A stretch of DNA of 64,000 nt from a virus, in IMG/VR virus record IMGVR_UViG_3300027762_000294, positions 11,469 to 75,468 of that record. The stretch is one strand, 5' to 3'. Numbering within the stretch: the stretch's first letter is position 1; each line of letters begins with the position of its first letter. The translations under genes were made by a program, and so were the position numbers. This document shows positions 4,126 through 64,000 of this stretch, piece by piece. Under the pieces are notes generated by a model. That model did not search any database, was not told the origin of the DNA, and saw only the letters and a program-made list of their open reading frames with translations.

Positions 4126-4132
4126 GTTGTTA

Positions 4133-7012: not shown

Positions 7013-7021
7013 ACCCTTCAA

Positions 7022-7041
7022 CTGCCGGCTTAAGCCGGCAG
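7022..7041 (+). other. Perfect palindromic hairpin overlapping the next RBS
   Basis: CTGCCGGCTTAAGCCGGCAG preceded by TCAA; AGGAGG begins in its 3' arm. Confidence 0.6.
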
Positions 7042-7051
7042 GAGGTAAAAT

Positions 7052-8167: not shown

Positions 8168-8559
8168 TCTACAATAATCAAGAAACAGGGGGGAGATTTA
8201 AACTCACAGAACACCATAACTCGGGGGATATAAAGCCTGTCCAGATTTTTGACAACGGCTCCTTTAACATTTTAGGAGACCCCATAGAACCTGTATATGC
8301 CCAGGTTAGGGTATTTGTCCTGTTTACCCCAAGTTGGCAAGTAGACAGTTATAGTGCGCTACATGACCCTCAATCAGGATTGTTTTTCATGACAGAGCGG
8401 ATGAGGTCTGTTGGAGATGGGACTAACAGCGCCTCTATATTTACCGCGGCTGTAAATGGGGAAGAGGTCATGCTTCAACCCTTACACTTTGATATACACG
8501 GATTTCTAATTTTAGGAGGAATAACCGATGAGCTATCAAGCGTTATCAGATTTAATTGA
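8164..8559 (+). CDS. Hypothetical protein (131 aa; start MIYNNQ)
   Basis: ATGA overlap with upstream stop suggests this start rather than 7990. Confidence 0.6.
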   Translation: MIYNNQETGGRFKLTEHHNSGDIKPVQIFDNGSFNILGDPIEPVYAQVRVFVLFTPSWQVDSYSALHDPQSGLFFMTERMRSVGDGTNSASIFTAAVNGEEVMLQPLHFDIHGFLILGGITDELSSVIRFN

Positions 8560-8707
8560 CCAACTTCTATACACCTTAACTGTGTTGATTGAACAATCGA
8601 TTAGTTATGTTGATGAAGGTGAGCTCAATCTTGAGGATTTTAGACTGCTGCTGTTAGAGGGTCTTACAAATTTAAAGAATGATGTTAAGCGAGAGGTATT
8701 ACAATGA
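8528..8707 (+). CDS. Small acidic helical protein (59 aa, not in ORF track)
   Basis: AGGAGG upstream; MSYQALSDLIDQLLYTL...; ATGA-coupled to next ORF. Confidence 0.6.
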   Translation: MSYQALSDLIDQLLYTLTVLIEQSISYVDEGELNLEDFRLLLLEGLTNLKNDVKREVLQ

Positions 8708-8874
8708 CCCCCGCAACAGCTTACTTTATATTGGACGAAATAGACCAAGCGTATATAGAATTTTTAACAACTTACGATGAGGAATATCCATTACCTCCAG
8801 AGGTAATATGTACTTTGTTGTTAGAACCTCTTGACGAAGCTATAGATACTGTAAATCACTGGAATCTATCTTAA
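8704..8874 (+). CDS. Small highly acidic protein (56 aa, no Lys/Arg; not in ORF track)
   Basis: GAGG upstream; MTPATATFILDEIDQAYIEFLTTYDEEYPLPPEV...; 12 D/E and 0 K/R. Confidence 0.6.
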   Translation: MTPATAYFILDEIDQAYIEFLTTYDEEYPLPPEVICTLLLEPLDEAIDTVNHWNLS

Positions 8875-8948
8875 CATCATAACAATCCAGGAAAAGAAGA
8901 AATCATTCCCTTCCTTTCTTGGATTTTTTTTAAAAAGGATTAGGTAGA

Positions 8949-11900: not shown

Positions 11901-13121
11901 AAATTATCTGAATTGAGTGATTTGAAAGATAAGGTCTTAAAAGCCAATCTCTTGTATGACCGCTGTTATGCACACTCGGATGTTAGTATTTTGAGTTTAG
12001 CCAATGACGCTGATAAAGCCGCAGCCCGGGAATTATCGAATTACATAACACCCCCACATAAGAGAGCAAAGTTTATCCCTTTCTTGGATAGCCTTAAGTT
12101 AGATGTGTCCCCCACTTTTGAGGAGTTGCCAACTGATGATGAGCATATGACGGTTTTGAAATTATATGCCCCATATGTGCCCAACACGGAAGAATATCTA
12201 ATATCCCAAGGTCGTAAAGTTGATAATTTGGCACGCCAACGGATCGACGATGTTGAGGGGGTAGTTTGTTTAAAGCCAACCGGAGAATCTCGTATTAACT
12301 TTGATGAAGTTCCTACACGGGTCACAAAGGGACTTACCGGAGTTGCGCCGAATAGAGCAATTCATGGGATAATTGAGGATTGTATTCTCCCTCAACCTAA
12401 AGATATTACATTGATGTATCTTAGTGGTGAATACCCAACTGATAAAAATGCATATCCTGAAATTCCAGGTAATTGCCCTAATCCTTCTTCAACTCTATAC
12501 ATGCGCGGACCTCGCCCTATTGGAGATATTTGTGAAGCTGTTGGAGATGAATATCAACCCGAAAAAAGTGACCGGTTTTTTGATCCTATAAAGGAGCACG
12601 TTCCTTATATGAAAGCCGCTTATTTAGAAGCTAAGACTGTAACCAATACTATTGAAAATCCAGGTAAGTCGGCGATTGCTAAAATGGCAATTAGTGAGAC
12701 AGCTTGTTATCACGGGTTAAGTTGGATGCATCATAACGACCGACTTCGTGAGTTCATGATTTCATTGGCTGCCCCCTTCATCACTGCTCGTGAGGCATAT
12801 AATCGTGGTGAATATGATCACCCGTTTCTTGTGGATTATGTGTATCCTTATGGTGAATTAACTGACAGTTTAGCCGAAGGGTTATTACAAAAGGAAGGGG
12901 AAGAATCTGTAGGGCAACTTATGGATATTTTGACTGGATTTAACCAAGCCCAAGCCATGGCAAATAAGTTAGAATCAGAACCCCAGCGGTTTGAAAAAGT
13001 GGTAAGCGATCTTAAAGCTAAGGATTATTTTTGGAAACGTGCCAATTTCATATCTGGAAAAGGTAGACGCTTCAGAATCATCAACCATGTTAAGTATCTC
13101 GAAGGAGAACAAAATAAATGA
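8949..13121 (+). CDS. TOPRIM primase fused to SF3 (D5-like) helicase, with a long unknown C-terminal region
   Basis: LIVCEG...VVIVPDVD...GDFGD (TOPRIM); Walker A GTGGIGKS, Walker B ILDD, GGEMRTEGKFQ, motif C FVYNETP, GLERRL. Confidence 0.88.
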   Translation: MNFEIKVKGVGSKIIIDSTNPKWNLLSSPKYTHPAYTYRLFKANGESTCDLSVLLTSNDKLLLYRYSKGFESSVYEGVHPGLYAEVEARVGSVPTIKVGETISKPVGEPSHNHQLLHCPNSIPESVVADFKKRGVPLRLLVELGYYLIEKRLYTPAYIIETGELCPFVCRDPGNDKHHKRTLKGSKFASFAWIKSSVEECETLIVCEGIMTALAIANYFPNQHVVSVGAHNNYPNLINDTALSRYFPEVTTVVIVPDVDSNHHSTDSISKLTINSEKVRLAIFPMNPSTLKGDFGDLKSKTAQRVAAALFEFIAFASGKTLANRLYYERKVTPCTLNNNPGDLPMIQGSKTTSFLEPMGFLNNFLRLGPKSFYCVPHQLVVSLEQLTSLIESPATMIPYTSALTDLMGNEPKGSAVYKEAQAVLDKIKRWSTDTLISNIPNHPLLRLDMYGFAFKNGYFMHDGSNHWFVTDNKTRPAAVNLRYPPIHLEYVPEAIDDIAKQEVEFVLGHCMCGGSRKSKESVARMLRSLFFGNEDHIATHARSIYVVEGTGGIGKSQLGLLIKSMDPYAGDINPMSVASKNKSQFHFTHEDALKSIKILDDAPPIFGDVSFLKTSATGGEMRTEGKFQNPVYVETCASMVFVYNETPKFDNDTGLERRLRYVTLEGKRNNSIKVDTLGTLSKHLPAVFNWICENINTVVSDEDFYRSTKTEVPADVMAFAEAVFTPSFNSNPALSTSELMFFKRVFIQDENECKKLKPKERTTLWQNTNRKQEPQYSLFDGYKRTLGLKNNISHSQFEDKLRIALSYRQVQQQFLGVEPTQSLYNYRELFFTVNSKTQYVRMRLEQIHENPDDQDPVTPPPEKQNKDIVPINQVSPVPQKPVIDGYFQGEDSFLDIVWHLQNFKEWERSEDLLWIVYNPNKDKEFEGFLKTNYHGDELTNLLRLLRMYREPLVAVKSNNFLSPELHTAVLDDFEFATLTDMFPEKLSELSDLKDKVLKANLLYDRCYAHSDVSILSLANDADKAAARELSNYITPPHKRAKFIPFLDSLKLDVSPTFEELPTDDEHMTVLKLYAPYVPNTEEYLISQGRKVDNLARQRIDDVEGVVCLKPTGESRINFDEVPTRVTKGLTGVAPNRAIHGIIEDCILPQPKDITLMYLSGEYPTDKNAYPEIPGNCPNPSSTLYMRGPRPIGDICEAVGDEYQPEKSDRFFDPIKEHVPYMKAAYLEAKTVTNTIENPGKSAIAKMAISETACYHGLSWMHHNDRLREFMISLAAPFITAREAYNRGEYDHPFLVDYVYPYGELTDSLAEGLLQKEGEESVGQLMDILTGFNQAQAMANKLESEPQRFEKVVSDLKAKDYFWKRANFISGKGRRFRIINHVKYLEGEQNK

Positions 13122-13603
13122 GCTTATTCCCAGAATTCGGTTTGACTGTTCAGACCGTTGAACCCACAACTAAAAGTTCATCTGAAGATGACGGGAAGCC
13201 CACTAAATCGGGGAAGAACAAAGATTTGTTTGACGGGGGATTTTCAAACATGAACCTAATTCAAGAAGAAGAGAATACAGGGGACTTTCCACTATATACT
13301 TACGATCCTGATAAACAATTCAAACACCCTTGTAATTGTGTGGAGATAACGTTTGAGAATCAGGTGTTTAATTGGGCATCTCCTAGTAATAAAAAGGTAG
13401 GGGTTGATTTTTCTAAAGGTGCTACACGCACAATACGGTTAACCCTGCCCAGCGAGGTCCCTATTGTTATACCTGAATCTGAGGATATTCGTGAAGTATT
13501 AGATCATGGGGTGCCTGATCTTTACCTTAGCAAACCCACTCTTGTATCTAAGGGTAAAGAATCACGTCGTAACATCCGGGGAGATTTAAGTAATTATGAG
13601 TAG
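13118..13603 (+). CDS. Hypothetical protein in replication operon
   Basis: Overlaps primase and polymerase genes; no recognised motif. Confidence 0.7.
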   Translation: MSLFPEFGLTVQTVEPTTKSSSEDDGKPTKSGKNKDLFDGGFSNMNLIQEEENTGDFPLYTYDPDKQFKHPCNCVEITFENQVFNWASPSNKKVGVDFSKGATRTIRLTLPSEVPIVIPESEDIREVLDHGVPDLYLSKPTLVSKGKESRRNIRGDLSNYE

Positions 13604-15356
13604 AGTAGTGTTATATGACATTGAGGTGTTTCCTAACGCCGCGTTTATGGTATTTTGTATTGACGGGGTGTATTATTACCGAGACTTACTTAAACTGACT
13701 CACGACGATCATTTTTTCAAATATGCAATGTGTCCAATGACAACATATTTAGGGTATAACTCGTTTCATTATGATAACATTGTGATCAACCGAGTTGTTG
13801 GAAAAGGTTTAACTTACTCACAGATCAAGGAATTGAGTGACTCCATTATTAAGGGTAATTTTAAGGATGAGAATTACCTGTTATTAGGAGGTGAGAAATT
13901 CACCAATGTAGCTGACTTTGCAGCGGTTATGAGATTACAACAAGTTTTTGGAAAAAAACGGTATCCTATCGGATTAAAAACAGTAGCGGAACTTGAACTC
14001 GGTCTCATTTATGACAGTCCTTTGAGTTTCAACTCTTTAATTGAAACAGAGAGCCATAAAAGAGCTGCAATCACATATTGCTACACGGATGTTAAAGTGA
14101 TGTATGAGATATTAGCAGGTAAAGGGGATTTGTTAGCACAAAATCTGTTTTGGTTTATGAAAACCAAAGGCGAAAATGCGTGGCTAAAACATAATGCTGG
14201 AATTACAAATAACCTATTTAGAAATGAATTGAAAAAGCCCAATTCATTAAGAGCTAATCCTAATGAAAATCTCCTGATTCCTTTGCCAGGTGTAAATTCA
14301 GTATTGGGCAAGGCAATATTGAACAATGGGTTGAAAAAGGATATTGAATTACCGGTACCATATGGGGTTTTAATGTTTGGGGTGGGCGGGGTTCATTTAA
14401 ATTATACACAACCCATTTGTTTTAACGGGCGAATTTTAGTAGCGGATATCAAAAGTTTTTACCCGTCTATGTTAGTACACCTCAGAAGCATGCCTGGGGG
14501 CTTGACTGCATTTGTGAAAATTTTAGGGGAGATGCTTGATCATAAACGAAGCGCCGAGATGAGCATTCCCAAAAAATCAACAGAATTTCAAAAGTTGGTT
14601 GTGAATTCTGCGTACGGTTTGTTGTTAGATAAGAACTCGGTAATTTTTTCTGTAGGTACCGCTAACAATATGATTTTTTGTTGTTTCTTATTAGTTGCGG
14701 AGGTGTTTTCAGATTTGACAGACGCGGGTTACCCTCCTATTTATGTAAATACGGACGGCTTTTTCATTCCTAGTCGGGGGGTTCGTGATGACGTTTATAT
14801 TAAACAAGTTATTAAAAGCACTTGTGAACGATTAACAGGGAAGGACGCAATTCAATGGAGTTACAAAACCTACAAAGGAGGTTACATAAAGGACACGTCT
14901 AATTACATTTTGAACACTCAAGAAGAACATTGGGCATTTGTTGCTAAAGGGTGTTTTGAAGGACCTAGTGTTTACCGATTGAATGGCAAGTGGCTTAACT
15001 TGTTAGCTGTAAATAATTTTCCCGGGGAGGTTACCGGGGAAAAACTGAAGGCGTTTTTTCTAGGGAATCCAAAAGAGCGATATAAATACTTTGTGCGTCA
15101 AGCAAATGCTGACTGGTTTGGCAATGGTAATGAATCAAAAACGTATATCTTTACTAAGAGTACCGATTTAGTAACATCTATTAGGAGAACACAAAAGGGG
15201 ATCCAGAGAATTACTAATTGGGTTTTGCAAGGTGCCGTTCCTTTAGGAAAAATTGATTTTACAGGGTATGCCGACTTGCCTATCGACTTCGATCGTTATG
15301 CAAAGGAAGTTAATGATTTAGTTGATAGAGAAAATTTAATATACCTTGATTGGTGA
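13596..15356 (+). CDS. Family B DNA polymerase with 3'-5' exonuclease
   Basis: ExoI YDIEVFPN, ExoII GYNSFHYD, ExoIII YCYTDV; polymerase motifs DIKSFYPS, KLVVNSAYG, YVNTDG. Confidence 0.92.
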   Translation: MSRVVLYDIEVFPNAAFMVFCIDGVYYYRDLLKLTHDDHFFKYAMCPMTTYLGYNSFHYDNIVINRVVGKGLTYSQIKELSDSIIKGNFKDENYLLLGGEKFTNVADFAAVMRLQQVFGKKRYPIGLKTVAELELGLIYDSPLSFNSLIETESHKRAAITYCYTDVKVMYEILAGKGDLLAQNLFWFMKTKGENAWLKHNAGITNNLFRNELKKPNSLRANPNENLLIPLPGVNSVLGKAILNNGLKKDIELPVPYGVLMFGVGGVHLNYTQPICFNGRILVADIKSFYPSMLVHLRSMPGGLTAFVKILGEMLDHKRSAEMSIPKKSTEFQKLVVNSAYGLLLDKNSVIFSVGTANNMIFCCFLLVAEVFSDLTDAGYPPIYVNTDGFFIPSRGVRDDVYIKQVIKSTCERLTGKDAIQWSYKTYKGGYIKDTSNYILNTQEEHWAFVAKGCFEGPSVYRLNGKWLNLLAVNNFPGEVTGEKLKAFFLGNPKERYKYFVRQANADWFGNGNESKTYIFTKSTDLVTSIRRTQKGIQRITNWVLQGAVPLGKIDFTGYADLPIDFDRYAKEVNDLVDRENLIYLDW

Positions 15357-15405
15357 AATGTAAATTTACTCCTTCCTGGATTATTTTTTTTTTGTTATTA
15401 TTAAT

Positions 15406-16740
15406 ATGGGAGGTTGCGTGAAATACAATCCTGTAAAATATGGAGAATATATTGCTAAAAAATTCGGAGACACACTAGACCCTTGGCAACGTGAAGAGTT
15501 GACTCGTTTTGGTAGAGTTTTAAACGGGGAGATACCTAACTTGAGAATCTCGTTGCCCGCAGCGCATGGGGTAGGAAAAACGTTTTTAGCAAGCCTAATA
15601 ATTACTTACGCCTTATCGGTTGTCCCACGTATAGCGGGAGTTGCCACATCTAATACCCGGCAACAATTAATCACTAAATTAGTGAGAGAAATTCAGAAAG
15701 TCATTCCTTATAATCCCGGTTTAAAATGCACCACTTACGGAGTTAGGAGGATTACAAAACCGTCTAACGTAGTCTCTTTTGTGACGTTTGATCCCACAAT
15801 GCCCGAGAGTTTTCAGGGGCTACATGAAGAATTTGTTCTTATTGTTATAGACGAGGCATCTGGATTACCGGATGATTTGTTTAGGGTATTAGAAGGCGCA
15901 TTATCCGGGGGAAGATTTTATTACTTGTTGTTGGGTAATCCCACTAAATTAGGGACGTATTTTCATAAAACAGTGACTGATTACAAACATATATGGCTAA
16001 GTCGTCCTATTTCTTGTTTTGATTCTCACAGAGTGTCTCCCTCATATTCTGAAAATATGGATACGCTGTATGGAAAAGACTCGGATATGTATAGAGTTAG
16101 GGTGTTGGGGTTGTTTCCAAAAATCTCAGGGGGTGATAGTAACCTTTTCAAAACTTCAGATTTTAAAAACGTGTTTGAAGAAAAGTTTGAAGGTTGTCTA
16201 GACGGTGAACGTAGCTTAGGAATGGACGTAGGCGCGGGGGGTGATAAAACGGTATTGGTTGATGTTACAGTCAATAAAGAATTAAAAATAATTTCGATAA
16301 ATTCCATAAACCCTTACGGAGAGGCGGATTTAGTTAAAGTGGCAAGATTGCCTATTGATTATATGCGGGATATTGATTTTTTTGACTTTGATTTGAATAT
16401 GGATAGCACAGGATTAGGGGCAGGGGTTTCTCATATGTTAGCAGAAATAATACGCAACAACAACCTATCGACTCGTTTAAACCCGTTTAACTTTTCATCA
16501 AAACCAATATACTTAGACGACCCCTATAATGCTAAAAATATTCGCACGATGTTATACACTAACTTGAAAAAACTACTTGTCCTAGGGTGGCGGATTTATG
16601 GAATGCCAGAAGATTTGGTGAAGTTGCTCTTGACAATTGTGTTTAGATCTGATACACTGTATTTAGAAATTGTGAATAAGTCTAAAGACCAAAATCATGA
16701 CGCTTTAGACGCCTTACTGTTAAGTATAATATTTGTTTGA
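15406..16740 (+). CDS. terL: Terminase large subunit
   Basis: LDPWQ adenine-binding motif, AAHGVGKT Walker A, VIDEASG Walker B, LGNP, nuclease GMDVGAGGDKT and HDALDAL. Confidence 0.92.
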   Translation: MGGCVKYNPVKYGEYIAKKFGDTLDPWQREELTRFGRVLNGEIPNLRISLPAAHGVGKTFLASLIITYALSVVPRIAGVATSNTRQQLITKLVREIQKVIPYNPGLKCTTYGVRRITKPSNVVSFVTFDPTMPESFQGLHEEFVLIVIDEASGLPDDLFRVLEGALSGGRFYYLLLGNPTKLGTYFHKTVTDYKHIWLSRPISCFDSHRVSPSYSENMDTLYGKDSDMYRVRVLGLFPKISGGDSNLFKTSDFKNVFEEKFEGCLDGERSLGMDVGAGGDKTVLVDVTVNKELKIISINSINPYGEADLVKVARLPIDYMRDIDFFDFDLNMDSTGLGAGVSHMLAEIIRNNNLSTRLNPFNFSSKPIYLDDPYNAKNIRTMLYTNLKKLLVLGWRIYGMPEDLVKLLLTIVFRSDTLYLEIVNKSKDQNHDALDALLLSIIFV

Positions 16741-16744
16741 TTAG

Positions 16745-17629
16745 GTGATTAATGTGAGTATAATCGAGTTTTTTAGATCCGAGGGGCTACCCACTAAAAA
16801 TGGGTGTGTTAAATGGACGTCATTACATCAATACTTCGGATTTGCATCAAAGAAGGCAGCGAACAAACCCCACGTGGCAGACATACCATCCCGGTATGGA
16901 ATTAACCGAGAAAACGTCATTACCTTCTCGAATGACAAAGGGCATTGGATAACTGAGCACGGGATCGCCGAACTTTGTTATAGGTCAAGAAACAAAACGG
17001 CAGTTTTACTTTGGGAAAACTATTTCGACAAAGGAAACAAAAAGTTAAATTTAGCTTTTGAGGAATTGTGTAATGCAGGGGTTAACACTCAAGGTCATTT
17101 GTTGAGGGCATTAGACGTGCAATCATTCTTTAGGATTCGCAATAATCCCACTTACGATTTGACTCAATTAGGAATACCCTACGTTTTGGTTAAAGATGGG
17201 ATACACCCTAACAATTTACCTGCCACTTATTTTGCCTTGGATTATTTGCCCAGATATTTGGGAGCGCGGCGTAACAAGTTAGTGTATGACTTTGTCCAAA
17301 ACTACGAGTTGTCGACTACAATAATGCCTATTGAAGTTGCTATTATATCTGAGTTAGAACGGGAGTTTCCTGATCTATGCTTTCAAAGGCAATACCGGAT
17401 TGGTAAGTATCGGGTAGACGCTGTAATTTTACAGGAGTCTATTCCAGTTATTGCTATCGAAATTGATGAATATCAACATAAGCGAACGAGAAGCAGTGAG
17501 TATGATAAATTGCGTGAAAATTACATCATCACGGCATATCCGGATCTGGTTATTTTGAGAATAGACACAACTGCCAAAGAGTTCTCTTTGGCACCGTACT
17601 TCAACATCATACAGGAGCTTTGCAAATGA
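16745..17629 (+). CDS. BRO-N-like domain plus DUF559/Vsr-like endonuclease
   Basis: HWITEHGIAELCYRSR; C-terminal FQRQYRIGKYRVDA...IAIEIDEYQH...YDKLRE...ILRI. Confidence 0.75.
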   Translation: MINVSIIEFFRSEGLPTKNGCVKWTSLHQYFGFASKKAANKPHVADIPSRYGINRENVITFSNDKGHWITEHGIAELCYRSRNKTAVLLWENYFDKGNKKLNLAFEELCNAGVNTQGHLLRALDVQSFFRIRNNPTYDLTQLGIPYVLVKDGIHPNNLPATYFALDYLPRYLGARRNKLVYDFVQNYELSTTIMPIEVAIISELEREFPDLCFQRQYRIGKYRVDAVILQESIPVIAIEIDEYQHKRTRSSEYDKLRENYIITAYPDLVILRIDTTAKEFSLAPYFNIIQELCK

Positions 17630-18321
17630 CAACCCTAACATTTACCCCAGTTTTTCTTCACAAGTTGTTGCATCAACATCGGTACAGTGCTAAAGAGAAT
17701 GGTGTGTTGTTCAAATTGGAGGACCATGTATTGCAAGTAGTGTCTACCAATAACCGACTTTTGACAGTTACAAAACTCACCATGCCTGAAATTGACACTA
17801 CGTTAAACGCAACCATTCATAACCGTGGAGTGATGTTTATCAAAGGGTATCTGCGTAAGCTAAAAGGCTTGGTTTCCTTATCGTTTTCTGAGAGTTATGT
17901 CGATTTGAAGCAAGGCGAATCTCAAATCGACAGAAATTATTTGGTCGGGGAAACATATCCCGATTATACAGCGGTAATTCAAAAGGAGGTAGGATACCAG
18001 ATTTGGGTTAGATATTCCTCTTTCAAGGATGCCGTTCAAAGTCAAGAAAATGAGCTGATTTTGAAAGAGTACCAACACCGTCTTTTGATCAATCAACATT
18101 CAATGTCCATTTACGACAGTCGATATGCTGAGGGTAATGCTGTTAAATTGTCAACGGCACCAATCCCCCTAGACACCGATTTATTAATGGGGGCTGTACT
18201 TTCCCTAAATGCTTTGCCCAACAAACATTTGATTTTGTCCTTTTATGAGGATAGTATAAACGTAGGGCTTGAATTAGAAGGACGCCCTGAAACTAAGGTT
18301 ATAATAGCCGCCAACCATTAA
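17620..18321 (+). CDS. DNA polymerase III beta-clamp-like protein (shortened)
   Basis: NGVLFKL...VVSTNNRLL (cf. VATDGHRL) and GETYPDYTAVI (cf. GxFPDYxxVI). Confidence 0.7.
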   Translation: MQMTTLTFTPVFLHKLLHQHRYSAKENGVLFKLEDHVLQVVSTNNRLLTVTKLTMPEIDTTLNATIHNRGVMFIKGYLRKLKGLVSLSFSESYVDLKQGESQIDRNYLVGETYPDYTAVIQKEVGYQIWVRYSSFKDAVQSQENELILKEYQHRLLINQHSMSIYDSRYAEGNAVKLSTAPIPLDTDLLMGAVLSLNALPNKHLILSFYEDSINVGLELEGRPETKVIIAANH

Positions 18322-44725: not shown

Positions 44726-44967
44726 GGTTTTGCAATCTCCCCTATGACAGATTCCGGATGAAGTTTATCCACTAAAATATTCCCCCCTTTATCTCCTAAC
44801 AAAAAAACAACAACTAATACTAAACCATACCTTTTGAATGTAGTTAACTCCTCTTTTAAACTCCTGATTTCATAAGTCATTCCCTCGAGTTTACTTCTAA
44901 TGTCCCTATGATCCTGAAGAAGACTATCCACTGTATCTGACAATTCTTTAACTGTTAAGTTTCCCAT
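44722..44967 (-). CDS. Holin-like protein (coiled coil plus one TM)
   Basis: Directly follows the endolysin; heptad region then YGLVLVVVFLLG. Confidence 0.55.
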   Translation of the reverse strand: MGNLTVKELSDTVDSLLQDHRDIRSKLEGMTYEIRSLKEELTTFKRYGLVLVVVFLLGDKGGNILVDKLHPESVIGEIAKP

Positions 44968-45545
44968 GGCACTTCCTTAGTTATATAATAACGTGGTTGT
45001 AGATATTGGGCGTCATATTCTCTCACGTCTAAATGGACCCAAGTCGGGGATAACTCTCTAGGCTCTACAGATTTCATATTGCGCTTTCCCCACCCTATTT
45101 GACAATTACACTTAGAAATAATAGTCTCCCTATTTTTAGCGACAAAATCAACAGCGTTACCCATATGATTTGTTGTGCGACGTCCGTGTTTTTTGTTGTT
45201 TAATTTACATCTATAACCCGACGTGATTATAACATCCCCCACATAAAACTGAATTGCTTTTAAAGTGTAAATCAAAACCTCGTGAATACCCTTACCATCA
45301 AACCCTCCACACGAACAGTTAGGGCATTTTAACTTCTCAAAATCAACGGGATATTTTGTTATGAACTCACACATCGCGGCTTTAGTCTTAGGTCCCGCAA
45401 CACCATCAGGATGTTCATCTCCCATGTAATCATGTTGAAACTGTTTGATTTGTTTTATTGTTTTCGGTCCCATAACACCATCCCAGGTTGTCCCGCCAAA
45501 CCCTGCTAAAATTATTTGTATTCTTTCCACATTCATGAATTCCAC
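44955..45545 (-). CDS. Endolysin: peptidoglycan-binding domain plus M15 Zn peptidase
   Basis: DGVMGPKT...DGVAGPKT; ITSGYRC, HMGNAVDF, WVHLDVR. Confidence 0.9.
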   Translation of the reverse strand: MEFMNVERIQIILAGFGGTTWDGVMGPKTIKQIKQFQHDYMGDEHPDGVAGPKTKAAMCEFITKYPVDFEKLKCPNCSCGGFDGKGIHEVLIYTLKAIQFYVGDVIITSGYRCKLNNKKHGRRTTNHMGNAVDFVAKNRETIISKCNCQIGWGKRNMKSVEPRELSPTWVHLDVREYDAQYLQPRYYITKEVPWET

Positions 45546-55913: not shown

Positions 55914-56915
55914 TTAAATTTCTTTTACTAAAGACATGACTTTCTCAACCTTGTCATATTCGTTTTCGATTAACTCGCATCTCAACACATTTGCGATATC
56001 CGTGGCTAGTCTAAAAATACGAGACTGTTGACTATTGTGACTGACCAAAGTTGTGATTGCCCCTTGATTCGACTCCAAACCTCCCGGCAGCAACAACCCC
56101 AACTCTTCAAAGATGCTATCTTTATGATTTTTGATGATAGTCTCCGTCACCATCAACAGATTACCATCATGAGTAACCCAACTGACCTCACCTTCACCTC
56201 TAAACTCAAATACCGTCGTTGGGGATAATGTAAAATCTTCGGTTGATAATCCTTTACGGGTAAACATTGGGAACGATGAAATGGTAAGGGATAAGTTGTG
56301 TGTTGATGCGATTGTATAATACGAAGCAATTGTTGCTAAATACTTGGAAAACACTGATCTTGTTGGAGTTAAAAAACTTTCTCCCTCATACGCAATAAAT
56401 CGCAAGTAATCCCGTTCCCATAAATTGATAATTTGTTGTTTATTTTTTGGATTAACATCCATAAGAAATATATCTGAAGAAACAACGTCATTCCCAACTA
56501 AATAAACACTCCCTGAAATCATGATTTCTTTCACGATCCCAGCAATGTATTTAGATGAGACCACGGACCCATCATCACGTTTGAACGTAAACGAATTTAA
56601 CATATAATCGACGCGGTTGTTAATCACGGTTGCTATGATGTTAGGTGCCACAAGTACACTTAACCGACCCCGATAAGTTTTTTGATCTTCATCCTCGAAC
56701 GGAGGACACAGGTATAATAACGTGTCTAAACAAATCCCATCTTGATATATCATTCTTACAATGTCATTCCCACCGTGCTGGTTTGTAGTAAATGTGATCA
56801 TTAAATTCTCTCCTCTATATAATAAATATACCACACTCCCCTTTAGAATACCAGCGGTATTCCCCTGAGTGTAGCCAAAGGTCCGACCAACGGTACTTTC
56901 GTAGGGCAATTTCAT
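55914..56915 (-). CDS. Portal protein (DUF4055-like, compact 333 aa)
   Basis: YLCPPFEDEDQKTYRGRLSVLVAPN and EVSWVTHDGN resemble DUF4055-type portals; first gene of the head operon. Confidence 0.6.
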   Translation of the reverse strand: MKLPYESTVGRTFGYTQGNTAGILKGSVVYLLYRGENLMITFTTNQHGGNDIVRMIYQDGICLDTLLYLCPPFEDEDQKTYRGRLSVLVAPNIIATVINNRVDYMLNSFTFKRDDGSVVSSKYIAGIVKEIMISGSVYLVGNDVVSSDIFLMDVNPKNKQQIINLWERDYLRFIAYEGESFLTPTRSVFSKYLATIASYYTIASTHNLSLTISSFPMFTRKGLSTEDFTLSPTTVFEFRGEGEVSWVTHDGNLLMVTETIIKNHKDSIFEELGLLLPGGLESNQGAITTLVSHNSQQSRIFRLATDIANVLRCELIENEYDKVEKVMSLVKEI

Positions 56916-56922
56916 TATGGAA

Positions 56923-57007
56923 TGGGAATTGGAATGAGGGCGACTTACCACTATCGTAATGTTAACCTCCTACTACGTAGTGGGAATTGGAATGAGGGCG
57001 ACTTACC
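56923..57007. repeat. Two exact 27-bp direct repeats separated by 31 bp
   Basis: TGGGAATTGGAATGAGGGCGACTTACC at 56923-56949 and 56981-57007. Confidence 0.9.
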
Positions 57008-57287
57008 CTCCAAACGAGCGATGGGAACGATACTACACCCCCCCCCTCCTTCAAATGCGTGAATACGCCTGCCTTAGTCCTGTATCAAAAAAATTCTAAA
57101 AATGCCCACGCCCCCTCAAATCATAAAGAAGGGGTGTAATAGCCCCGTGGTAAAGAGATCTCAGTTAAGCCGGATCATTATGCCTAGGGATGTAATCGTT
57201 TAAGGGTGGGGCGATTAGGACGTTGTAGGGCAAAATCAATCCAATAAAAGAAGAAAGGTTGATTAGGGCAGAAGCGCAGCCAAAGAT

Positions 57288-57434
57288 AATCTTCACAAAC
57301 AGGGAAAAACGTAACTAAAACATCAATCAAAGTATCACTTTTGACCGCGCTTAAGTTATTGATTTATAACGATACAGACTTTTTTAGACATTGGAAGATG
57401 AATCTTCACAAACAGGGGAAAAACGTAACCAAAA
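57288..57434. repeat. Iteron-like direct repeat pair
   Basis: AATCTTCACAAACAGGG(G)AAAAACGTAACYAAAA at 57288 and 57401. Confidence 0.85.
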
Positions 57435-57785
57435 CCCCAATATATCGCCAGCAATAACCCCACTTCCAAAGGGTCAAAAAAGATTAACATTTATTATTAG
57501 TGTGGGTATTCAAGTTATAGAGGAAAGTGGCTTGTTTATTTAGGAAAACTTAAGATCGCGTCAACGGCGCAGTTTAAGGTACATTGGAAGTTTACTTTGA
57601 AACACGTCAAACCCCGCCATATTTTACTACATTGAAGTATCTTTCATACGACGTATAATACCCATTTATTATAAAAATTCTTCTTATATATTAATAGCTT
57701 ACATAGTTTAAGATCACTTATATTATATTTTTTAAAAAAGTTTAAGATTTAAAATATATATATATTTAAGGGTAGTAACATCTTA

Positions 57786-58413
57786 TTTCATTTCCTTGAA
57801 TTGCTTTAACGTAGTATAGGGTAGGGGATGGTATTTAATACGTCATAAGAAACTGTCAAAGTGTCGAAAAAGATTGAGAGAGATAAGTGTGAATAATCAA
57901 TAACTTAAGAAGTTTTAAATTTGAAGAAGAGAGATAATAGGAAAATTTAGTCTAAGTGATCTGAAATCACGTAAGCCCTTGATTGATAGGAATAATTTTC
58001 ATAATAAACTTGTATGTATACTCTATATGGCGGTAAATTCTAAACACAAGTATACACTTACAAGATGTAATTGAACTTAGCCCGGTAAAGAAGATCCTTT
58101 CATTTCCTTGAATTGCTTTAACGTAGTATAGGGTAGGGGATGGTATTTAATACGTCATAAGAAACTGTCAAAGTGTCGAAAAAGATTGAGAGAGATAAGT
58201 GTGAATAATCAATAACTTAAGAAGTTTTAAATTTGAAGAAGAGAGATAATAGGAAAATTTAGTCTAAGTGATCTGAAATCACGTAAGCCCTTGATTGATA
58301 GGAATAATTTTCATAATAAACTTGTATGTATACTCTATATGGCGGTAAATTCTAAACACAAGTATACACTTACAAGATGTAATTGAACTTAGCCCGGTAA
58401 AGAAGATCCTTTC
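57786..58413. repeat. Tandem duplication of a 312-bp unit
   Basis: 57786-58097 repeated at 58098-58409, no differences seen by eye, with TTTC microhomology at the junctions. Confidence 0.92.
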
Positions 58414-58483
58414 CTTCCCTTTGGATTGCCCTAGGAGCCCCAAGGTTGAACGATCGTATATACCCCATGCCATATAGCCAGGC

Positions 58484-58515
58484 AAAAAAAACCCGGCGTA
58501 AACACTTGCCGGGTT
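58484..58515 (-). terminator. Rho-independent terminator ending the early array
   Basis: AACCCGGC/GCCGGGTT stem with a T-tract on the minus strand. Confidence 0.85.
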
Positions 58516-58542
58516 GTGGTTAGGTTACTTTACTTTACAGCG

Positions 58543-58893
58543 TTATAGATCGCGTAGCCAAGGAAGCCAGGTTAAATAAGGGATAAATCTATCTAGATAC
58601 TGCTGGTGTATCTGAGGGTCTGAGTCCAGATATAACTGCATAGTGGACCCGGGTTCATCCCCTTCAAAAATCAAGCAGCCATCCATCAGATCAAATTTGA
58701 ATAGGCAAGTTTTATACCCAAACAGAATGCAGTTCTTACGGGGCGAGCATTCAGTCAAGAGCCACGAGTAAGACTCGTCATACTCAACTCGATTGTTTAG
58801 GATAATGCCAGCCGCTTCATGTAATGTAAACTTAGTGACCATCAACAACCGTAATTCTTTTGCAACAGATAAGCACATAACTTCTTTCCTCAT
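58543..58893 (-). CDS. Early hypothetical protein, paralog family A
   Basis: FGYKTCLFKFDLMDGCLIF resembles blocks in ORFs at 60716, 61137 and 63070. Confidence 0.7.
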   Translation of the reverse strand: MRKEVMCLSVAKELRLLMVTKFTLHEAAGIILNNRVEYDESYSWLLTECSPRKNCILFGYKTCLFKFDLMDGCLIFEGDEPGSTMQLYLDSDPQIHQQYLDRFIPYLTWLPWLRDL

Positions 58894-58934
58894 TCTTGAA
58901 TTAATAAAGCGCCCCTTTCAGGGCGCGGTTGATT

Positions 58935-59507
58935 TTACTTCTGTCCTATGTCCCATGCCCCATTTAGAGCACGATTCTTATACCGCGGGTTTGCCCGTGG
59001 GTATGTGACTTGTATCATAGACGACAACATGTTGAACACAGAAGTGTTGATGGGTATGGGCACAAAATCATCAGTAAGATAATCCATTATGATGTTACCC
59101 TCGAGTTCACTGAGAATCCGCCCAGCCAATTCATCAGGAGTATCACCCCCATCATAAATAAGTCTGAACAGTATGTCCTCAAAACACAGTAACTCACTTA
59201 ATTCTATAGGATACTGCAGGGGATCACTCATGATTCTTTTTATACCGACCTCTAAAAAATGGTACTTATGTGCTAATGGAAAATAACACATATAATCAGG
59301 ATAAACCTCTGACTCTAAATCACGGGTGAAATCACGTAATGCCATGACCTCTCCAATATTCATGAAGGAATTCGAGCATGGTATGACTGGGCAATAAAAC
59401 TTGACCTTGCATCCCGTTCCTAGAATTGCAGTCACCATATTACCAACCGCCTCAACAAGTCTTACACCCTTAAAAAACGTGTACGGTTTATATAAAAGAT
59501 GAGCCAT
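58935..59507 (-). CDS. Early hypothetical protein, paralog family B
   Basis: LLYKPYT...YPDY...TSVFNM pattern shared with ORFs at 59993 and 61580. Confidence 0.7.
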   Translation of the reverse strand: MAHLLYKPYTFFKGVRLVEAVGNMVTAILGTGCKVKFYCPVIPCSNSFMNIGEVMALRDFTRDLESEVYPDYMCYFPLAHKYHFLEVGIKRIMSDPLQYPIELSELLCFEDILFRLIYDGGDTPDELAGRILSELEGNIIMDYLTDDFVPIPINTSVFNMLSSMIQVTYPRANPRYKNRALNGAWDIGQK

Positions 59508-59587
59508 TTATTCTGCCTCCCAATTCTGCATGTCTTTCAAATTTTGACCCGGGGTAAACAAACGTTCTTTCTGTTTTAAGAAAGACT

Positions 59588-59950
59588 TCATTTACGGTCT
59601 TCTTCAATCATATTCCCTCTCTTTATTGGATTGCAGGGCGCAGTTAATGTTAATGTATTAAAGACCAACTCCATCTTAAACCGTGGGTTGCCATACGGGT
59701 GGATACCTTTGTCTTTTAAAAAATCTACGAGACCACTATGACCCAATTTATAAATAAGGTCTAAAATACCTCCTATCGAAATATACCAACTCCCATTAAC
59801 AAACTGTTTGTTGTTTTCATCAATTACAGACAAGGCTTTTTCAAAATAATCAGGTGTTGATGTATCCACCCCTGAAACACAATTAGGAAAATTGTGCAAT
59901 AAAGTACGAAGTCCATATACCATAATAGGATTTACTTCAGGTAATGACAT
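59588..59950 (-). CDS. Early protein with BRO-N-like motif
   Basis: ALSVIDENN...WYISIGGILDL, similar to ORF 6126. Confidence 0.6.
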   Translation of the reverse strand: MSLPEVNPIMVYGLRTLLHNFPNCVSGVDTSTPDYFEKALSVIDENNKQFVNGSWYISIGGILDLIYKLGHSGLVDFLKDKGIHPYGNPRFKMELVFNTLTLTAPCNPIKRGNMIEEDRK

Positions 59951-59992
59951 TTATTCTCTCCTTTCTTTGCGCCCCTTTCAGGGCGCGGTTGA

Positions 59993-60661
59993 TTAACGTT
60001 TGAAATCACGCTGTTTGTTTAAAGGCTCAATATGGCGTTCTTTGGGGCGTTCGCTAATTGTTGATAACCCATAAAGCCGTGGGCGTAAGGCATTCATCAA
60101 AACTAAGATGTAATCAAACAGTGACATACTACCAGTGTTCGTCGTTGCCCATACATTAGATGGGAAGTCAGTACGATAACTTTCAATCTTAGTGTTGCGT
60201 AGTTGGTTAAACAACAATTCTATAACAAAATTATGCACCCCTAAGTTATCACGAAACGGGGAAGTGGTTTGTAAAAACTTCAACAGACGGTCAACATCAT
60301 TGATAGGCAATTCTATTGTTGAGTCAGAAAGTATTCTTGTAAGGTCAAACAGTAAGTACATATATTCAGGATTAACATCTCTCGGTTGTAGGTATCCTGG
60401 GTAAGGGGAAAGCCATAAATCATCATCAGTTGCTAAGGCACTAAGCTCATACGGGGTCAATACATGTTCAGGGTACAAGATGTTTTCAAAGGGTACTGTT
60501 GTAAACGAATGATCGCTAAATTTGCCAGTAATACCGTTTTTGTTCAACATTGTAGTGGTATAATAATCACCTGAATGAAATTCACTGAATAACAACCGGT
60601 AAGTTTCTCCTTCATTATCATATATAGTGTTGGGTCTATACCAATAACGATTGTCGCTCAT
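59993..60661 (-). CDS. Early hypothetical protein, paralog family B
   Basis: YWYRPNT...VLTPYEL...YPGYL...MSLFDY. Confidence 0.75.
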   Translation of the reverse strand: MSDNRYWYRPNTIYDNEGETYRLLFSEFHSGDYYTTTMLNKNGITGKFSDHSFTTVPFENILYPEHVLTPYELSALATDDDLWLSPYPGYLQPRDVNPEYMYLLFDLTRILSDSTIELPINDVDRLLKFLQTTSPFRDNLGVHNFVIELLFNQLRNTKIESYRTDFPSNVWATTNTGSMSLFDYILVLMNALRPRLYGLSTISERPKERHIEPLNKQRDFKR

Positions 60662-60715
60662 ACATTTATCTCCTTTCTTTGGATTGATTGAGCGCCCCTT
60701 GCAGGGCGCGGTTGA

Positions 60716-61084
60716 TTATTTGAGGCTATCACGAATTAACTTGGCTGGTTCAGGGTCGATTAAGAATGTTAGCATGACGCCGGGCATGACAACCATAAAC
60801 AACGTCCCAGAATCCAGTTCGTAAAACGTTGGGAACTTCACGGTTGTTGTGATTAAGAAATTCCCGCGGTCTAACAACGGGAACTCATCATGCAAGTGGT
60901 TTGACCAATGGGTTACCTCTTCCTCACTATAGCCACCGCCGTAAATGGGGACATGCATCATTTTAAGAAAACTATTACGCCCCTCATCACTGTTCGTCTG
61001 ATCTACTAACAACAGCCCGGCAAAGAACGCCATATTGAGCAAGCCTTGGTTATTATCTGGTAACAAGTGATCTGTATACAACAT
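60716..61084 (-). CDS. Early hypothetical protein, paralog family A
   Basis: PTFYELDSGTLFMVV. Confidence 0.7.
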   Translation of the reverse strand: MLYTDHLLPDNNQGLLNMAFFAGLLLVDQTNSDEGRNSFLKMMHVPIYGGGYSEEEVTHWSNHLHDEFPLLDRGNFLITTTVKFPTFYELDSGTLFMVVMPGVMLTFLIDPEPAKLIRDSLK

Positions 61085-61136
61085 ATTTTTTTCCTTTCTT
61101 TGGATTGATTGAGCGCCCCTTGCAGGGCGCGGTTGA

Positions 61137-61448
61137 TTAATAGGACTGTAATTCTAACTCGTCATTAACGCCCGTTATTCCCTCTTCTGGGATCTCCTTA
61201 CTCAAGATAAAACCGTCATCAATAACAGCATACAAAATCCAACGATCTAAATCAAGTACATACACGCATTCTTGGTATTTAAAGAATACCGCGTTTTTTA
61301 AACCCCATATGAAGTCACAATCCACCAAGCCAGAAGCGGCATTATCAGCGGCGGCATCTAAATGTTTAACAAAAGTTTCGGGGTCGATCAACGTCATGGT
61401 GATCAAGTCATTCATGGCTTTACTAGCCAATTCATACGTGTTGCTCAT
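61137..61448 (-). CDS. Early hypothetical protein, paralog family A (acidic)
   Basis: FFKYQECVYVLDLDRWILYAVIDD; AAGGAG RBS. Confidence 0.72.
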   Translation of the reverse strand: MSNTYELASKAMNDLITMTLIDPETFVKHLDAAADNAASGLVDCDFIWGLKNAVFFKYQECVYVLDLDRWILYAVIDDGFILSKEIPEEGITGVNDELELQSY

Positions 61449-61480
61449 TTATTACTCCTTTGTTCAGTTTGTATAATGTA

Positions 61481-61509
61481 ATTATAGCCAGGTTATGGAA
61501 AGAAGTCAA
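61481..61509 (-). promoter_or_regulatory. Strong sigma70 early promoter TTGACT-N17-TATAAT
   Basis: Near-consensus with an A/T-rich UP region; one of three near-identical copies. Confidence 0.88.
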
Positions 61510-61579
61510 GGGTCTTTGAAAAAAAAGTTGTAGAGTGTTTTCCTTTCTAGCGCCCCTTTCAGGGCGCACCTGTTATGGA

Positions 61580-62143
61580 CTAACCATTAACCACCGCGTG
61601 TATGATTCGCATAAGTTTGAGTCTATATTCAAAAAGCGACATTTCAACTTCTGTCGATTCGGCTGACGTTTTAGTTGGCAAAAGAGAAATGCGTAATTGC
61701 GATTGAGATATATAACCCAACACGTGATCAATAAACTCGTCAATTGTCATATCCGATTTCACAAGGACCCGGTATAGAAAACATTGGAGCTCTCTCAAGG
61801 GCATGTGAGCACTAAAATCTAAACCTAAGGTTTGAACCTGTTGAATCAGAAAGTTCAAAACCTCGTTCTGATATTGAGTAAGAAGATCCCGCTCTATGTA
61901 GCGGGGATAATGCGTTACTACGCATAAATCTAAAAGTCCCAGTCTGAGAGTCCCAAGATCAAACGAGGTTAGTATTTGTTCTGGCAACGGCAATTCTAGA
62001 GCTACCTCTTCTATATAACCCGGGTAGTCGTTTGCGGGATTCTTTTTCGTAATTACATAACCACATTCTGTTTTCACAGCGTGGACTAAAAGGTTTCCTT
62101 TGTCGTCAAGGGTATGGGGTGTATAAAATAAAGTGTTAGACAT
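61580..62143 (-). CDS. Early hypothetical protein, paralog family B
   Basis: LFYTPHT...ILTSFDL...YPRYI...MSLFEY. Confidence 0.75.
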   Translation of the reverse strand: MSNTLFYTPHTLDDKGNLLVHAVKTECGYVITKKNPANDYPGYIEEVALELPLPEQILTSFDLGTLRLGLLDLCVVTHYPRYIERDLLTQYQNEVLNFLIQQVQTLGLDFSAHMPLRELQCFLYRVLVKSDMTIDEFIDHVLGYISQSQLRISLLPTKTSAESTEVEMSLFEYRLKLMRIIHAVVNG

Positions 62144-62198
62144 ACATCAATTCCTCTTTCTTTGGGTTGATAAAGCGCCCCTTGCAGGGCGCGTGATG

Positions 62199-62945
62199 TT
62201 AATATCGTAAGTACCAGGTACAACCTTCGATACCGTTGATGATGATCTTGTTAGACCGCACATTATTATCAAACACTAGACATAGTGGTTGCATAGCCTT
62301 GAGTATGGTAGTTAGGGTAGAAAGCTCAAGATGGATAGAGTAGATGGGGGCGTTTGGCATACCCAATCTAACAAAGCCCGGATACTTGTCACCAGCACAA
62401 TCACCATGTATCAGATACTCTTCTTCTGCACCAATCATTCTGCCAAGGGTTGTTTTATCCGGATAAAGCCGCAAAACCACTGTGGGGGTTTTTTCAGTTA
62501 CGTTCTCTGTCTTCACATTTTCAACTGCTTTACAAAGAGAACCATACTCCAATTTAACAGGGGCACCGGGAGTGGACAGTTCAAATCTCTCAGTGTCATA
62601 TGGGGCTTGACTTGAGATCGATGTTTCTTTTACGCCAACCGTTGCGTTATACAATACGAAACTCAACGAGTTGGCAGGATGAGCGTCATAATAACATTTG
62701 ACAAGTTTGTTGTTTTTACCAACTTCGGATTTTAACCGCTTAACAGTATCTTGGGAGACCGCTAACCAAAAACCTTCACCTTCATAATAAGAGGGCACGG
62801 TATACTCAAAACAAATCCCGTATTTGTCAACCATTAACGACACATTCTTGCTAGTAACTTGGATCAGTAATTTACTTCCCTTCGTATACTGATCTAGTGC
62901 GATTTTTAATCGCCGTTGTGAGATTTCAAACACCTTAATTGCCAT
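62199..62945 (-). CDS. Divergent beta-clamp-like protein (early)
   Basis: Similar size and alternating strand/helix pattern to 17620..18321, sharing an API...L...L block; weak call. Confidence 0.4.
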   Translation of the reverse strand: MAIKVFEISQRRLKIALDQYTKGSKLLIQVTSKNVSLMVDKYGICFEYTVPSYYEGEGFWLAVSQDTVKRLKSEVGKNNKLVKCYYDAHPANSLSFVLYNATVGVKETSISSQAPYDTERFELSTPGAPVKLEYGSLCKAVENVKTENVTEKTPTVVLRLYPDKTTLGRMIGAEEEYLIHGDCAGDKYPGFVRLGMPNAPIYSIHLELSTLTTILKAMQPLCLVFDNNVRSNKIIINGIEGCTWYLRY

Positions 62946-62978
62946 ACAACTTTTCCTTTGTTTAGTTTTGATGATGTA

Positions 62979-63007
62979 ATTATAGCTCGGTTGTGGACAG
63001 AAGTCAA
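62979..63007 (-). promoter_or_regulatory. Strong sigma70 early promoter TTGACT-N17-TATAAT
   Basis: Second copy. Confidence 0.88.
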
Positions 63008-63069
63008 GGTTTTTTTTCTTTTTTTTGGAGGGGTCAGTGATTGTGCCCCTTACAGGGCACAGTTAAAGG

Positions 63070-63426
63070 TTAATACGAGATGGTCATGGCTTCCATAACG
63101 GCTTGGGTGCCTTCAGGTGTGAAGGTTATTGACATAGTCACATCATTGTCAATAATCATCACTAGATAACCGGTATCCAGATCATAGAAAAAGGGATCGC
63201 CCTGGTGTAAAAACCCTATGGCGCAATCCATTTGCTGTAGCTCTACATGGACCTTCACAAACTTCTCATAATCCTCCGGCAGTGGTTGCTTGGTCATAAT
63301 TTTCACTAACTCAGTCACACCTCCCAAACCCTCATATTCAGTGGAATTGTTGCTCATAGCTTTTAATTCGATGAGTAACATATGGCTGAGAAGTAGTTGT
63401 GTGCCCAAATCGTGTTGTTGTTTCAT
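63070..63426 (-). CDS. Early hypothetical protein, paralog family A (118 aa; start MKQQHD)
   Basis: FLHQGDPFFYDLDTGYLVMIIDN; the longer start in the ORF track coincides with the promoter -35 box. Confidence 0.72.
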   Translation of the reverse strand: MKQQHDLGTQLLLSHMLLIELKAMSNNSTEYEGLGGVTELVKIMTKQPLPEDYEKFVKVHVELQQMDCAIGFLHQGDPFFYDLDTGYLVMIIDNDVTMSITFTPEGTQAVMEAMTISY

Positions 63427-63460
63427 GTTAAACCGCCCTTTGTTTAGTTTTGATAATGTA

Positions 63461-63489
63461 ATTATAGCTCGGTTGTGGAAAGAAGTCAA
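63461..63489 (-). promoter_or_regulatory. Strong sigma70 early promoter TTGACT-N17-TATAAT
   Basis: Third copy, first promoter inward from the palindrome. Confidence 0.88.
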
Positions 63490-63667
63490 GGTTTTTTTGA
63501 AAAAAAGTTATAGATTTTTTTCCTTTTTTTGGATTAATTTGTCAAACGTTATCTTAATGAATTCCTTTTTGGCATCCCCGCCGGTTTTTTTCCATAGGAA
63601 TAGCAGATTACATTCCCAAAAGGGAACGGTATGACAGGTAAAAATCCCAAAGACCCCGAAAAACGGA

Positions 63668-64000
63668 TTATTGTCACCTTTAGAGAACGAGGCGTTCAAC
63701 CAATATTTGTTACTTTTGCACTGAAAATAAAATTTTAATCAATTCTCATCGCTATTTTTTAATCAATTCCCATTGGGAACGGTAAAAAATTAATGAATAC
63801 GCTCAATTGGGTATTAGTTAATGTATGCAAAACGCCGTTTTTCAATTAGTAACTAATACTCAATTTGACGTATTCTCTATCTTTACCGTTCCCAATGGGA
63901 ATTGATTAAAAAATAGCGATGAGAATTGATTAAAATTTTATTTTCAGTGCAAAAGTAACAAATATTGGTTGAACGCCTCGTTCTCTAAAGGTGACAATAA
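63668..64000. repeat. Large inverted repeat with imperfect palindromic centre (runs to window edge)
   Basis: 63668-63786 is the reverse complement of 63882-64000 (119 bp); centre 63787-63881 pairs only partially, apex near 63835. Confidence 0.93.

Follow-up and report, generated by a model that had tools for sequence, protein, structure and literature searches.

The window that we analysed is a stretch of 64,000 nucleotides corresponding to positions 11469–75468 of a 75,468-nt viral record (contig C1), and its base 64000 is at the same time the end of the contig. The earlier note on this DNA had described the arms of the terminal fold-back as cut by the window edge; they are instead bounded by the end of the assembled molecule. 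The inner arm (63668–63786, plus strand) is 119 nt long and 100% complementary to the outer arm (63882–64000, minus strand), which returns along the complementary strand and stops at the contig end after 119 nt. This outer-arm length may correspond to the word size of the assembler. The two arms flank a 95-nt AT-rich imperfect palindrome (63787–63881) with a GC content of 0.295, compared with 0.38–0.39 for the genome, and a self-complementarity of 73%; we propose that it represents the tip of a hairpin or the centre of a replicative junction. In the assembly, the strand runs continuously from arm to centre to arm. The perfect arms of at least 119 bp and the bulged AT-rich centre of 95 nt reported in the earlier note were both confirmed by these comparisons.

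When folded as single-stranded DNA, the 149 nt of 63760–63908 reached −46.4 kcal/mol, compared with −10.8 ± 2.7 for 200 shuffled sequences (z −13.3), none of which folded as well. Folding of the complete 333 nt paired 68 of the 95 bases of the centre (34 pairs, two of them G-T). The remaining 27 are distributed over a basal 8/6 internal loop, several bulges of 1–2 nt and a 3-nt apex at 63834–63836. The axis of the arms falls at 63834.0 and the apex of the centre lies on the same axis. All the paired blocks listed in the earlier note are present, with the qualification that TTGGGTATTAGTTA/TAACTAATACTCAA includes one G-T pair; the proposed apex AAAACG-C-CGTTTT is present as well, but it would have a 1-nt loop and is better drawn as 5 bp closed by a 3-nt loop. 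At the sequence level, the terminal palindrome is accordingly AT-rich, incompletely paired and continuous with both strands. Since the centre is mismatched yet coaxial with perfect arms, we reason that the arm-centre-arm order was templated and is inherited sequence. The centre is documented in the source sample alone (freshwater sediment, run X1). Because its flanks are identical, reverse-complementing the centre turns flip into flop, and duplex or unstranded reads will always show both, so that the read test for such isomers suggested in the earlier note is uninformative on reads of this kind; in ungapped comparison the two forms are identical at 18 of 95 positions.

Two families of short motifs accompany the fold-back. 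A 17-nt motif, TTTTAATCAATTCYCAT, occurs in two copies 24 nt apart at 63733–63773 (plus strand) and is mirrored at 63895–63935; its four matches in 64 kb all lie at the fold-back, with 0.13 expected by chance. The second motif, TTCCC-N4-GGGAACGGTA, is found at 63613–63631 (plus strand), just inside the palindrome, and again at 63766–63784, mirrored at 63884–63902, so that within the arms it occupies the centre-proximal end of each. It has three matches in 64 kb, all within the last 400 nt (0.13 expected). The 17-mer repeats are candidate protein-binding or resolution sites and, judged by position, both families are candidate counterparts of the poxvirus concatemer resolution site. The last 510 nt of the contig are non-coding, and an Rfam search at the terminus returned no RNA family. 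A sigma-70-like promoter (11/12) directed inward is located at 63461–63489 (minus strand) and has a twin at 62979–63007; both lie within a 62-nt repeat unit whose copies are 97% identical.

The inverted terminal repeat and the genome it bounds

The 333-nt fold-back is mirrored at the other end of the contig, where it likewise forms the tip of a perfect inverted terminal repeat (ITR). Counted from either end, the contig and its reverse complement agree over 7,167 nt, with the first mismatch at base 7168, and IMG/VR places the record in its class of inverted terminal repeats. In the right copy of the ITR (56834–64000), minus-strand early ORFan genes and 1.6 kb of non-coding DNA accompany the terminal fold-back. 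The identity of the two copies may itself come from the assembly, should the assembler have passed through a single graph node twice. The earlier note had asked how far the repeat extends past 64000: there is no further sequence, but the fold-back tips a 7,167-nt ITR at both ends. An internal locus, which would have spoken against the note's reading, was not seen, the fold-back being terminal at both ends of the assembled molecule.

The ITR boundary can be followed in Logan contigs from four independent studies, namely the source run X1 (freshwater sediment), X2, X3 (subsurface) and X6 (lake water). In X1, a 37.9-kb unitig of the right unique arm enters the repeat for 30 nt and ends at 56863, and the loose end that precedes 56834 is the exact reverse complement of C1:7168-7197, the left flank. 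The ITR junctions are therefore not a product of the assembler. The unitigs of all four runs end at 56860–56864, and the strains in X2, X3 and X6, which are 1–10% diverged, break at the same ITR boundary. This boundary is a conserved property of the phage population. In X2, X3 and X6, the last 272 nt are almost uncovered, which has no bearing either way. We found no direct terminal repeat or other end in this phage genome. The contig and the read junctions both describe a genome bounded by ITRs, from which we infer that it is linear. In the assembly graph, both unique flanks enter one repeat whose outer end loops through the centre. This graph fits three forms, which look alike in short-read contigs: a linear genome with hairpin ends together with its dimers, a circle or concatemer, and an open or capped linear genome with a terminal palindrome.

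In the source run, contig depth is 35.2 in the right unique arm, 43–51 in the ITR and ~16 in the last 272 nt, contig depth not being equivalent to copy number. With the same reservation, the ratio of ITR to right unique arm is ~1.35 rather than 2. Flow conservation at the ITR boundary then gives a left-flank junction depth of ~13 against 35 on the right (~1/3), unless the contig depths mislead. The two genome halves could be unequally represented because the strains are mosaic, or because one end is replicated in excess, as described for SIRV2 (PMC5062984); contig depths could also simply be misleading.

All ITR genes are ORFans with no database relatives, and they form a shuffling array of early-gene cassettes: across 58900–63250, related strains skip, repeat or swap whole cassettes. 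One cassette joint, 58924 to 63072, carries the identical 11 inserted letters in X1 and X2; other joints connect 58896 to 61113 and 61107 to 61550. The non-coding block of 1.6 kb, which lies on the inner edge of the ITR, harbours a perfect direct repeat: two copies of 300 nt stand 312 nt apart (57786–58397), with short repeats around them. Contig depth in X1 climbs to 62–127 here, and the 300-nt repeats may exist in copies beyond those assembled. This region is a candidate origin, present once per ITR.

All genes of the window are directed inward, on the plus strand from 1 to 18321 and on the minus strand from 18442 to 56951, and the two halves meet within ~120 nt near 18.4 kb. The GC skew shows a single sign change, near 18 kb, where the gene halves meet. 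Inward genes and the skew flip together fit forks entering from both ends, a reading confounded by transcription and gene orientation. The genome encodes a terminase large subunit (15406–16740, plus strand; phrog_2, E 2.9e-29; homologues with PF03237/PF05127), a capsid protein of the P22-coat/HK97 type and tail proteins, and is that of a tailed phage. The terminase gene is situated in the replication arm, between the polymerase gene and a clamp-like gene and ~38 kb from the capsid gene; it is followed by a gene whose 294-aa product is DUF559/PD-(D/E)XK-like at the C-terminus. A single ORF of 7,744 aa (18442–41676, minus strand) takes up 23.2 kb, or ~31% of the genome. Between 254-aa and 502-aa ORFs of the tail region, Rfam identified a group II intron match (RF00029; 48106–48191, minus strand; 56.8 bits, E 1.7e-8). 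Genes for a YkuD L,D-transpeptidase, an SLT transglycosylase and an M48 peptidase form a group at 4153–7965, apart from the endolysin at 44955–45545.

Replication proteins and candidate resolving enzymes

The family B DNA polymerase noted earlier was recovered with a clear match (586 aa; 13596–15356, plus strand; phrog_1252, E 1.2e-34). A profile of 39 family members searched against the PDB matched archaeal PolB, E. coli Pol II and pol alpha best. The AF2 model of the polymerase (pLDDT 79.2) had 9N, KOD, Pol II and pol alpha as its top Foldseek matches, and the phi29 polymerase was absent among the top 50. Within the family (n = 39), 15 members match PF00136 and eight match PF03175; the polymerase itself matches PF03175 with 22 bits and E 7.6e-5, below the cut-off. 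By profile and by predicted fold, it most resembles primer-dependent PolBs and does not fall into the protein-primed subclass. It is also isolated, being a singleton at 90% clustering with its best full-length relatives 28% identical among 1.8 billion representatives.

Upstream of the polymerase gene, a 1,390-aa protein (8949–13121, plus strand) combines a Toprim domain with a P4/D5-type C-terminal domain (Toprim_3, E 0.002; DUF5906, E 4.6e-5). It also matches PHROG DNA primase families at ~1e-6 and the TIGR01613 P4-family primase model at E 1.1e-8, below the cut-off. The D5-like SF3 helicase of the earlier note is thus recognisable as a P4/D5-type primase-helicase, through matches that remain sub-threshold. 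This protein had no match among cultured phages or in the PDB. A 233-aa sliding-clamp-like protein is encoded at 17620–18321 (plus strand; DNA_pol3_beta_2, E 3.9e-4; TIGR00663 dnaN, E 1.5e-7, below the cut-off). Taken at their predicted functions, polymerase, primase-helicase and clamp-like protein make up an RNA-primed replisome. For such a replisome, a linear ITR genome that lacks direct repeats needs hairpin-type ends or a non-protein equivalent.

A 221-aa protein (1159–1824, plus strand) is a weak candidate for a RusA-family Holliday junction resolvase: it matches PF05866 with 13.2 bits and E 0.006, below the cut-off. Its Atlas feature matches (0.86–0.87) are all to RusA clusters, with a structural TM of 0.49 to a RusA cluster. 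PHROG and NCBIfam gave no match for it, and a word-based homologue search returned only the protein itself. The RusA-like match pointed out in the earlier note therefore exists at sub-threshold strength, and we treat it as a lead and not as an identification. Further nuclease-like products are the DUF559/PD-(D/E)XK-like protein and a ParB-nuclease-like protein. A six-frame search of the complete record (75.5 kb) with the protelomerase model PF16684 (ResT/TelK catalytic domain) gave nothing at E<=1, in agreement with the earlier observation that no protelomerase is visible in the window and extending it to the remainder of the genome. Six-frame searches of the whole record likewise gave no tyrosine recombinase (PF00589) or poxvirus A22 (PF04848), and PHROG, Pfam and NCBIfam scans of the ORFs detected no protelomerase, tyrosine recombinase or A22-like gene. 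We recognised no terminal protein among the products, such proteins being poorly conserved.

The same polymerase and capsid genes are present on other contigs, including a 58.9-kb ENA/JGI contig. Searches of IMG/VR with an ITR protein, the polymerase and the capsid protein returned no relatives, and the polymerase alignment was too diverged for scanning. The closest terminase has 51% identity (P0165) and is absent from IMG/VR; of 160 loci whose terminases are 30% identical, none has another gene in common with this phage, apart from one Dam-like match. Exact-pattern scans with the arm and the sub-terminal motifs found nothing in viral or metagenome contigs, where near records were possibly masked. 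For the nearest cultured phages by capsid protein (Nanhaivirus, ~25% identity), the records carry no inverted or direct terminal repeat. These searches yielded no relative whose ends would be informative on conservation or covariation.

A proposed telomere and its rivals

Based on these features, we propose that the 333 nt represent one telomere of a linear tailed-phage genome of ~75.1 kb with ITRs of ~7.0 kb. At each tip, the strands would be continuous through the 95-nt AT-rich, incompletely paired palindrome, and the contig would follow one strand outward to the tip, turn there and return on the other for 119 nt. What it represents would then be a hairpin end or the duplex head-to-head junction into which replication converts such an end. 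The RNA-primed replisome of primase-helicase, family B polymerase and clamp would copy round the tips and generate inverted dimers. Their junction would extrude as a cruciform or be nicked in the perfect arms, and a structure-specific nuclease would resolve it beyond the limits of the mismatched centre, a role for which we saw no candidate other than the RusA-like protein. Resolution outside the centre would let the mismatches persist from one genome to the next, as happens in poxviruses and rudiviruses. The recognition sites would be the two motif families of the last 400 nt. A protelomerase mechanism is excluded by the lack of a detectable gene and by a junction that is not a perfect palindrome, as a protelomerase junction is by construction (PMC13685816).

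The sequence itself supports a fold-back telomere at this locus, and we regard a hairpin-type telomere or head-to-head replicative junction, resolved outside its mismatched centre in the manner of poxviruses and rudiviruses, as somewhat probable. The ordinary terminase, the contig depths of the source run, the possible k-mer length of the outer arm and a centre that comes from one sample weigh against it. We infer the covalent closure of the ends, the resolving enzyme and the form of the packaged DNA. The reading in the earlier note, a hairpin terminus or a head-to-head junction, is partly supported: the fold-back is terminal on the assembled molecule, caps the ITRs, is mismatched and comes with no detectable protelomerase and with a polymerase of the primer-dependent kind; the RusA-like and D5-like assignments stay below threshold.

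The explanation that survives best among the rivals is that the fold-back is an artefact, formed as chimeric molecules during amplification or library preparation or by an assembler passing through a palindromic node, with the real ends elsewhere or at the base of the palindrome. The centre comes from the source sample alone, for which the library type is not on record, and 119 is a plausible k-mer size, k119_ contig names occurring among unrelated MAG records. The structure of the pivot argues against this origin. Random chimeras pivot on a few bases, and they and snap-back synthesis would give a perfect centre, so that by this reasoning neither made the structured, mismatched 95-nt pivot that is coaxial with the arms. 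An assembler, for its part, chooses a stopping point and cannot invent such a centre. The fold-back moreover tips an ITR whose inner junctions recur in four independent studies, and the terminus-specific motifs are symmetric around the centre. We consider an artefactual origin unlikely.

A second rival accepts the sequence and denies that the ends are physical. The genome would then be a circle or a head-to-tail concatemer of ~75.1 kb with a giant internal inverted repeat, arranged in plastid-like fashion as unique region, 7-kb repeat, 95-nt spacer, inverted 7-kb repeat and unique region, and opened by the assembler at the spacer. Such a molecule has the same assembly graph as the proposed hairpin genome, and the ordinary terminase of this phage would suit it, as in concatemer-packaging phages. 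Of the marks of a plastid-like graph artefact, the outer arm of 119 nt is possibly k-sized; the ITR of 7,167 nt is not, and the 95-nt centre is present. Nothing is missing between the arms, and on this reading the "small single copy" region would amount to just 95 nt, itself a palindrome. The circle would also need a near-perfect palindrome of 14 kb, and palindromes of this kind are not known to be stably maintained in bacteria with SbcCD. A circular form further predicts equal depth, against the ~16 of the last 272 nt and the 35 of the unique arm, a weak argument given that contig depth does not equal copy number, and neither a direct terminal repeat nor an alternative end was found in this genome. 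We therefore rate a circular or concatemeric genome as quite improbable.

In the third rival, the genome is linear with open or protein-capped ends, and its ITR finishes in a terminal palindrome of the Streptomyces or parvovirus fold-back type, in duplex form; a protein primer or a self-priming 3' end would start replication, and the virion ends would not be covalently closed. Kilobase-scale ITRs are a hallmark of terminal-protein replicons (PMC13685816). The weak match of the polymerase to PF03175, shared by 8 of the 39 family members, points the same way, as does a 161-aa ORF that overlaps the polymerase start, a frequent site of terminal-protein genes. At an open end, fold-back priming of the 95-nt palindrome in vivo or during library preparation could also give the same arm-centre-arm strand. 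Against protein-capped ends, the polymerase groups with primer-dependent PolBs in profile and fold searches, its family members match PF00136 more often than PF03175, no terminal protein was recognised among the products, and a primase-helicase and a clamp-like protein are present that are absent from phi29/PRD1-type systems. The self-priming variant of an open end is still a hairpin-telomere mechanism and shades into our preferred explanation. We judge this third rival the least probable of all.

Comparison with known viral telomeres

A hairpin-type telomere as proposed here would closely recall the ends of poxviruses, which have linear dsDNA with kilobase-scale ITRs and a ~100-nt AT-rich, incompletely paired tip with extrahelical bases (PMC8956199). 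The duplex junction of poxviruses is an imperfect palindrome between perfect arms, conserved short motifs lie beside the hairpin, and a Holliday junction resolvase is the expected resolving activity; in vaccinia, flip/flop hairpins, the concatemer resolution site and the A22 resolvase have been described (PMC8956199). By contrast, the present virus has a bacterial host and is a tailed, terminase-packaging phage of the HK97 type with a P22-coat-like capsid protein. It has no A22/RuvC-like gene and only the weak RusA-like candidate, and its terminal motifs show no sequence relationship to the resolution site of poxviruses.

The Rudiviridae are, like this phage, prokaryotic viruses with kilobase-scale ITRs, and they share with our proposal hairpin ends and head-to-head intermediates; they encode a junction resolvase of their own. 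They differ in being archaeal, rod-shaped and without a terminase, and in relying on a nickase of the Rep type and a resolvase of the Hjc type; we saw no counterpart of either in this phage. There is no sequence similarity between the two. The linear dsDNA of SIRV1 and SIRV2 carries ~2-kb ITRs and covalently closed hairpins, its replication starts at the termini, and resolution of the hairpin junctions involves a nickase (PMC5062984).

Among tailed phages, N15, PY54 and phiKO2 have an intracellular genome that is linear with hairpin ends (PMC12624138, PMC13685816). These phages need TelN or TelK, their telRL site is a short perfect palindrome, they have no kilobase-scale ITR and their virion DNA has cos ends. 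The phage described here has no detectable protelomerase domain, and its centre is mismatched, with bulges and the self-complementarity given above. The genomes of phi29, PRD1 and Cp-1 resemble it in being linear and in combining ITRs with a family B polymerase (PMC4974454, PMC13685816); their ITRs range from 6 nt to a few hundred nt, they have no terminal fold-back and their polymerase is protein-primed, with no primase or clamp. The same graph shape as that observed here has been reported as "paired terminal repeats" for the cultured, tailed Burkholderia jumbo phage Matilda, each end of which consists of an inverted repeat, a segment in both orientations and an inverted repeat (bioRxiv 10.64898/2026.10.21.760668). 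In Matilda, however, the segments are gene-bearing, with lengths of 1.3 and 25 kb, and one end is unlike the other. The preprint invokes no hairpins, and the words "hairpin" and "telomere" are absent from its text (bioRxiv 10.64898/2026.10.21.760668).

In the literature that we searched, we found no tailed phage with mismatched hairpins on kilobase-scale ITRs and no terminase-packaged genome that combines hairpin ends with such ITRs. A 2026 review recognises only two kinds of telomere in bacteria and phages, protelomerase-made hairpins and terminal-protein ITRs (PMC13685816). We tentatively suggest, as a possibility that we hold with less confidence than the telomere itself, that this phage belongs to a tailed, terminase-packaging lineage with 7-kb ITRs and mismatched, covalently closed hairpins that uses a junction nuclease instead of a protelomerase. 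If true, poxvirus-style mismatched hairpins on kilobase-scale ITRs would add a third kind of telomere for bacteria and phages, and would represent a convergent reinvention of the poxvirus, rudivirus and chlorovirus strategy inside Caudoviricetes. Such ends would raise the questions of how a terminase packages hairpin-ended DNA, how long palindromic junctions are shielded from SbcCD and whether a RusA-type enzyme can act as a telomere resolvase. Some viral contigs classed as "ITR", which pipelines treat as noise or as a mere completeness flag, would hold real information on genome ends. The phage would thereby offer a bacterial model of a replication mode that has so far been studied in eukaryotic and archaeal viruses.
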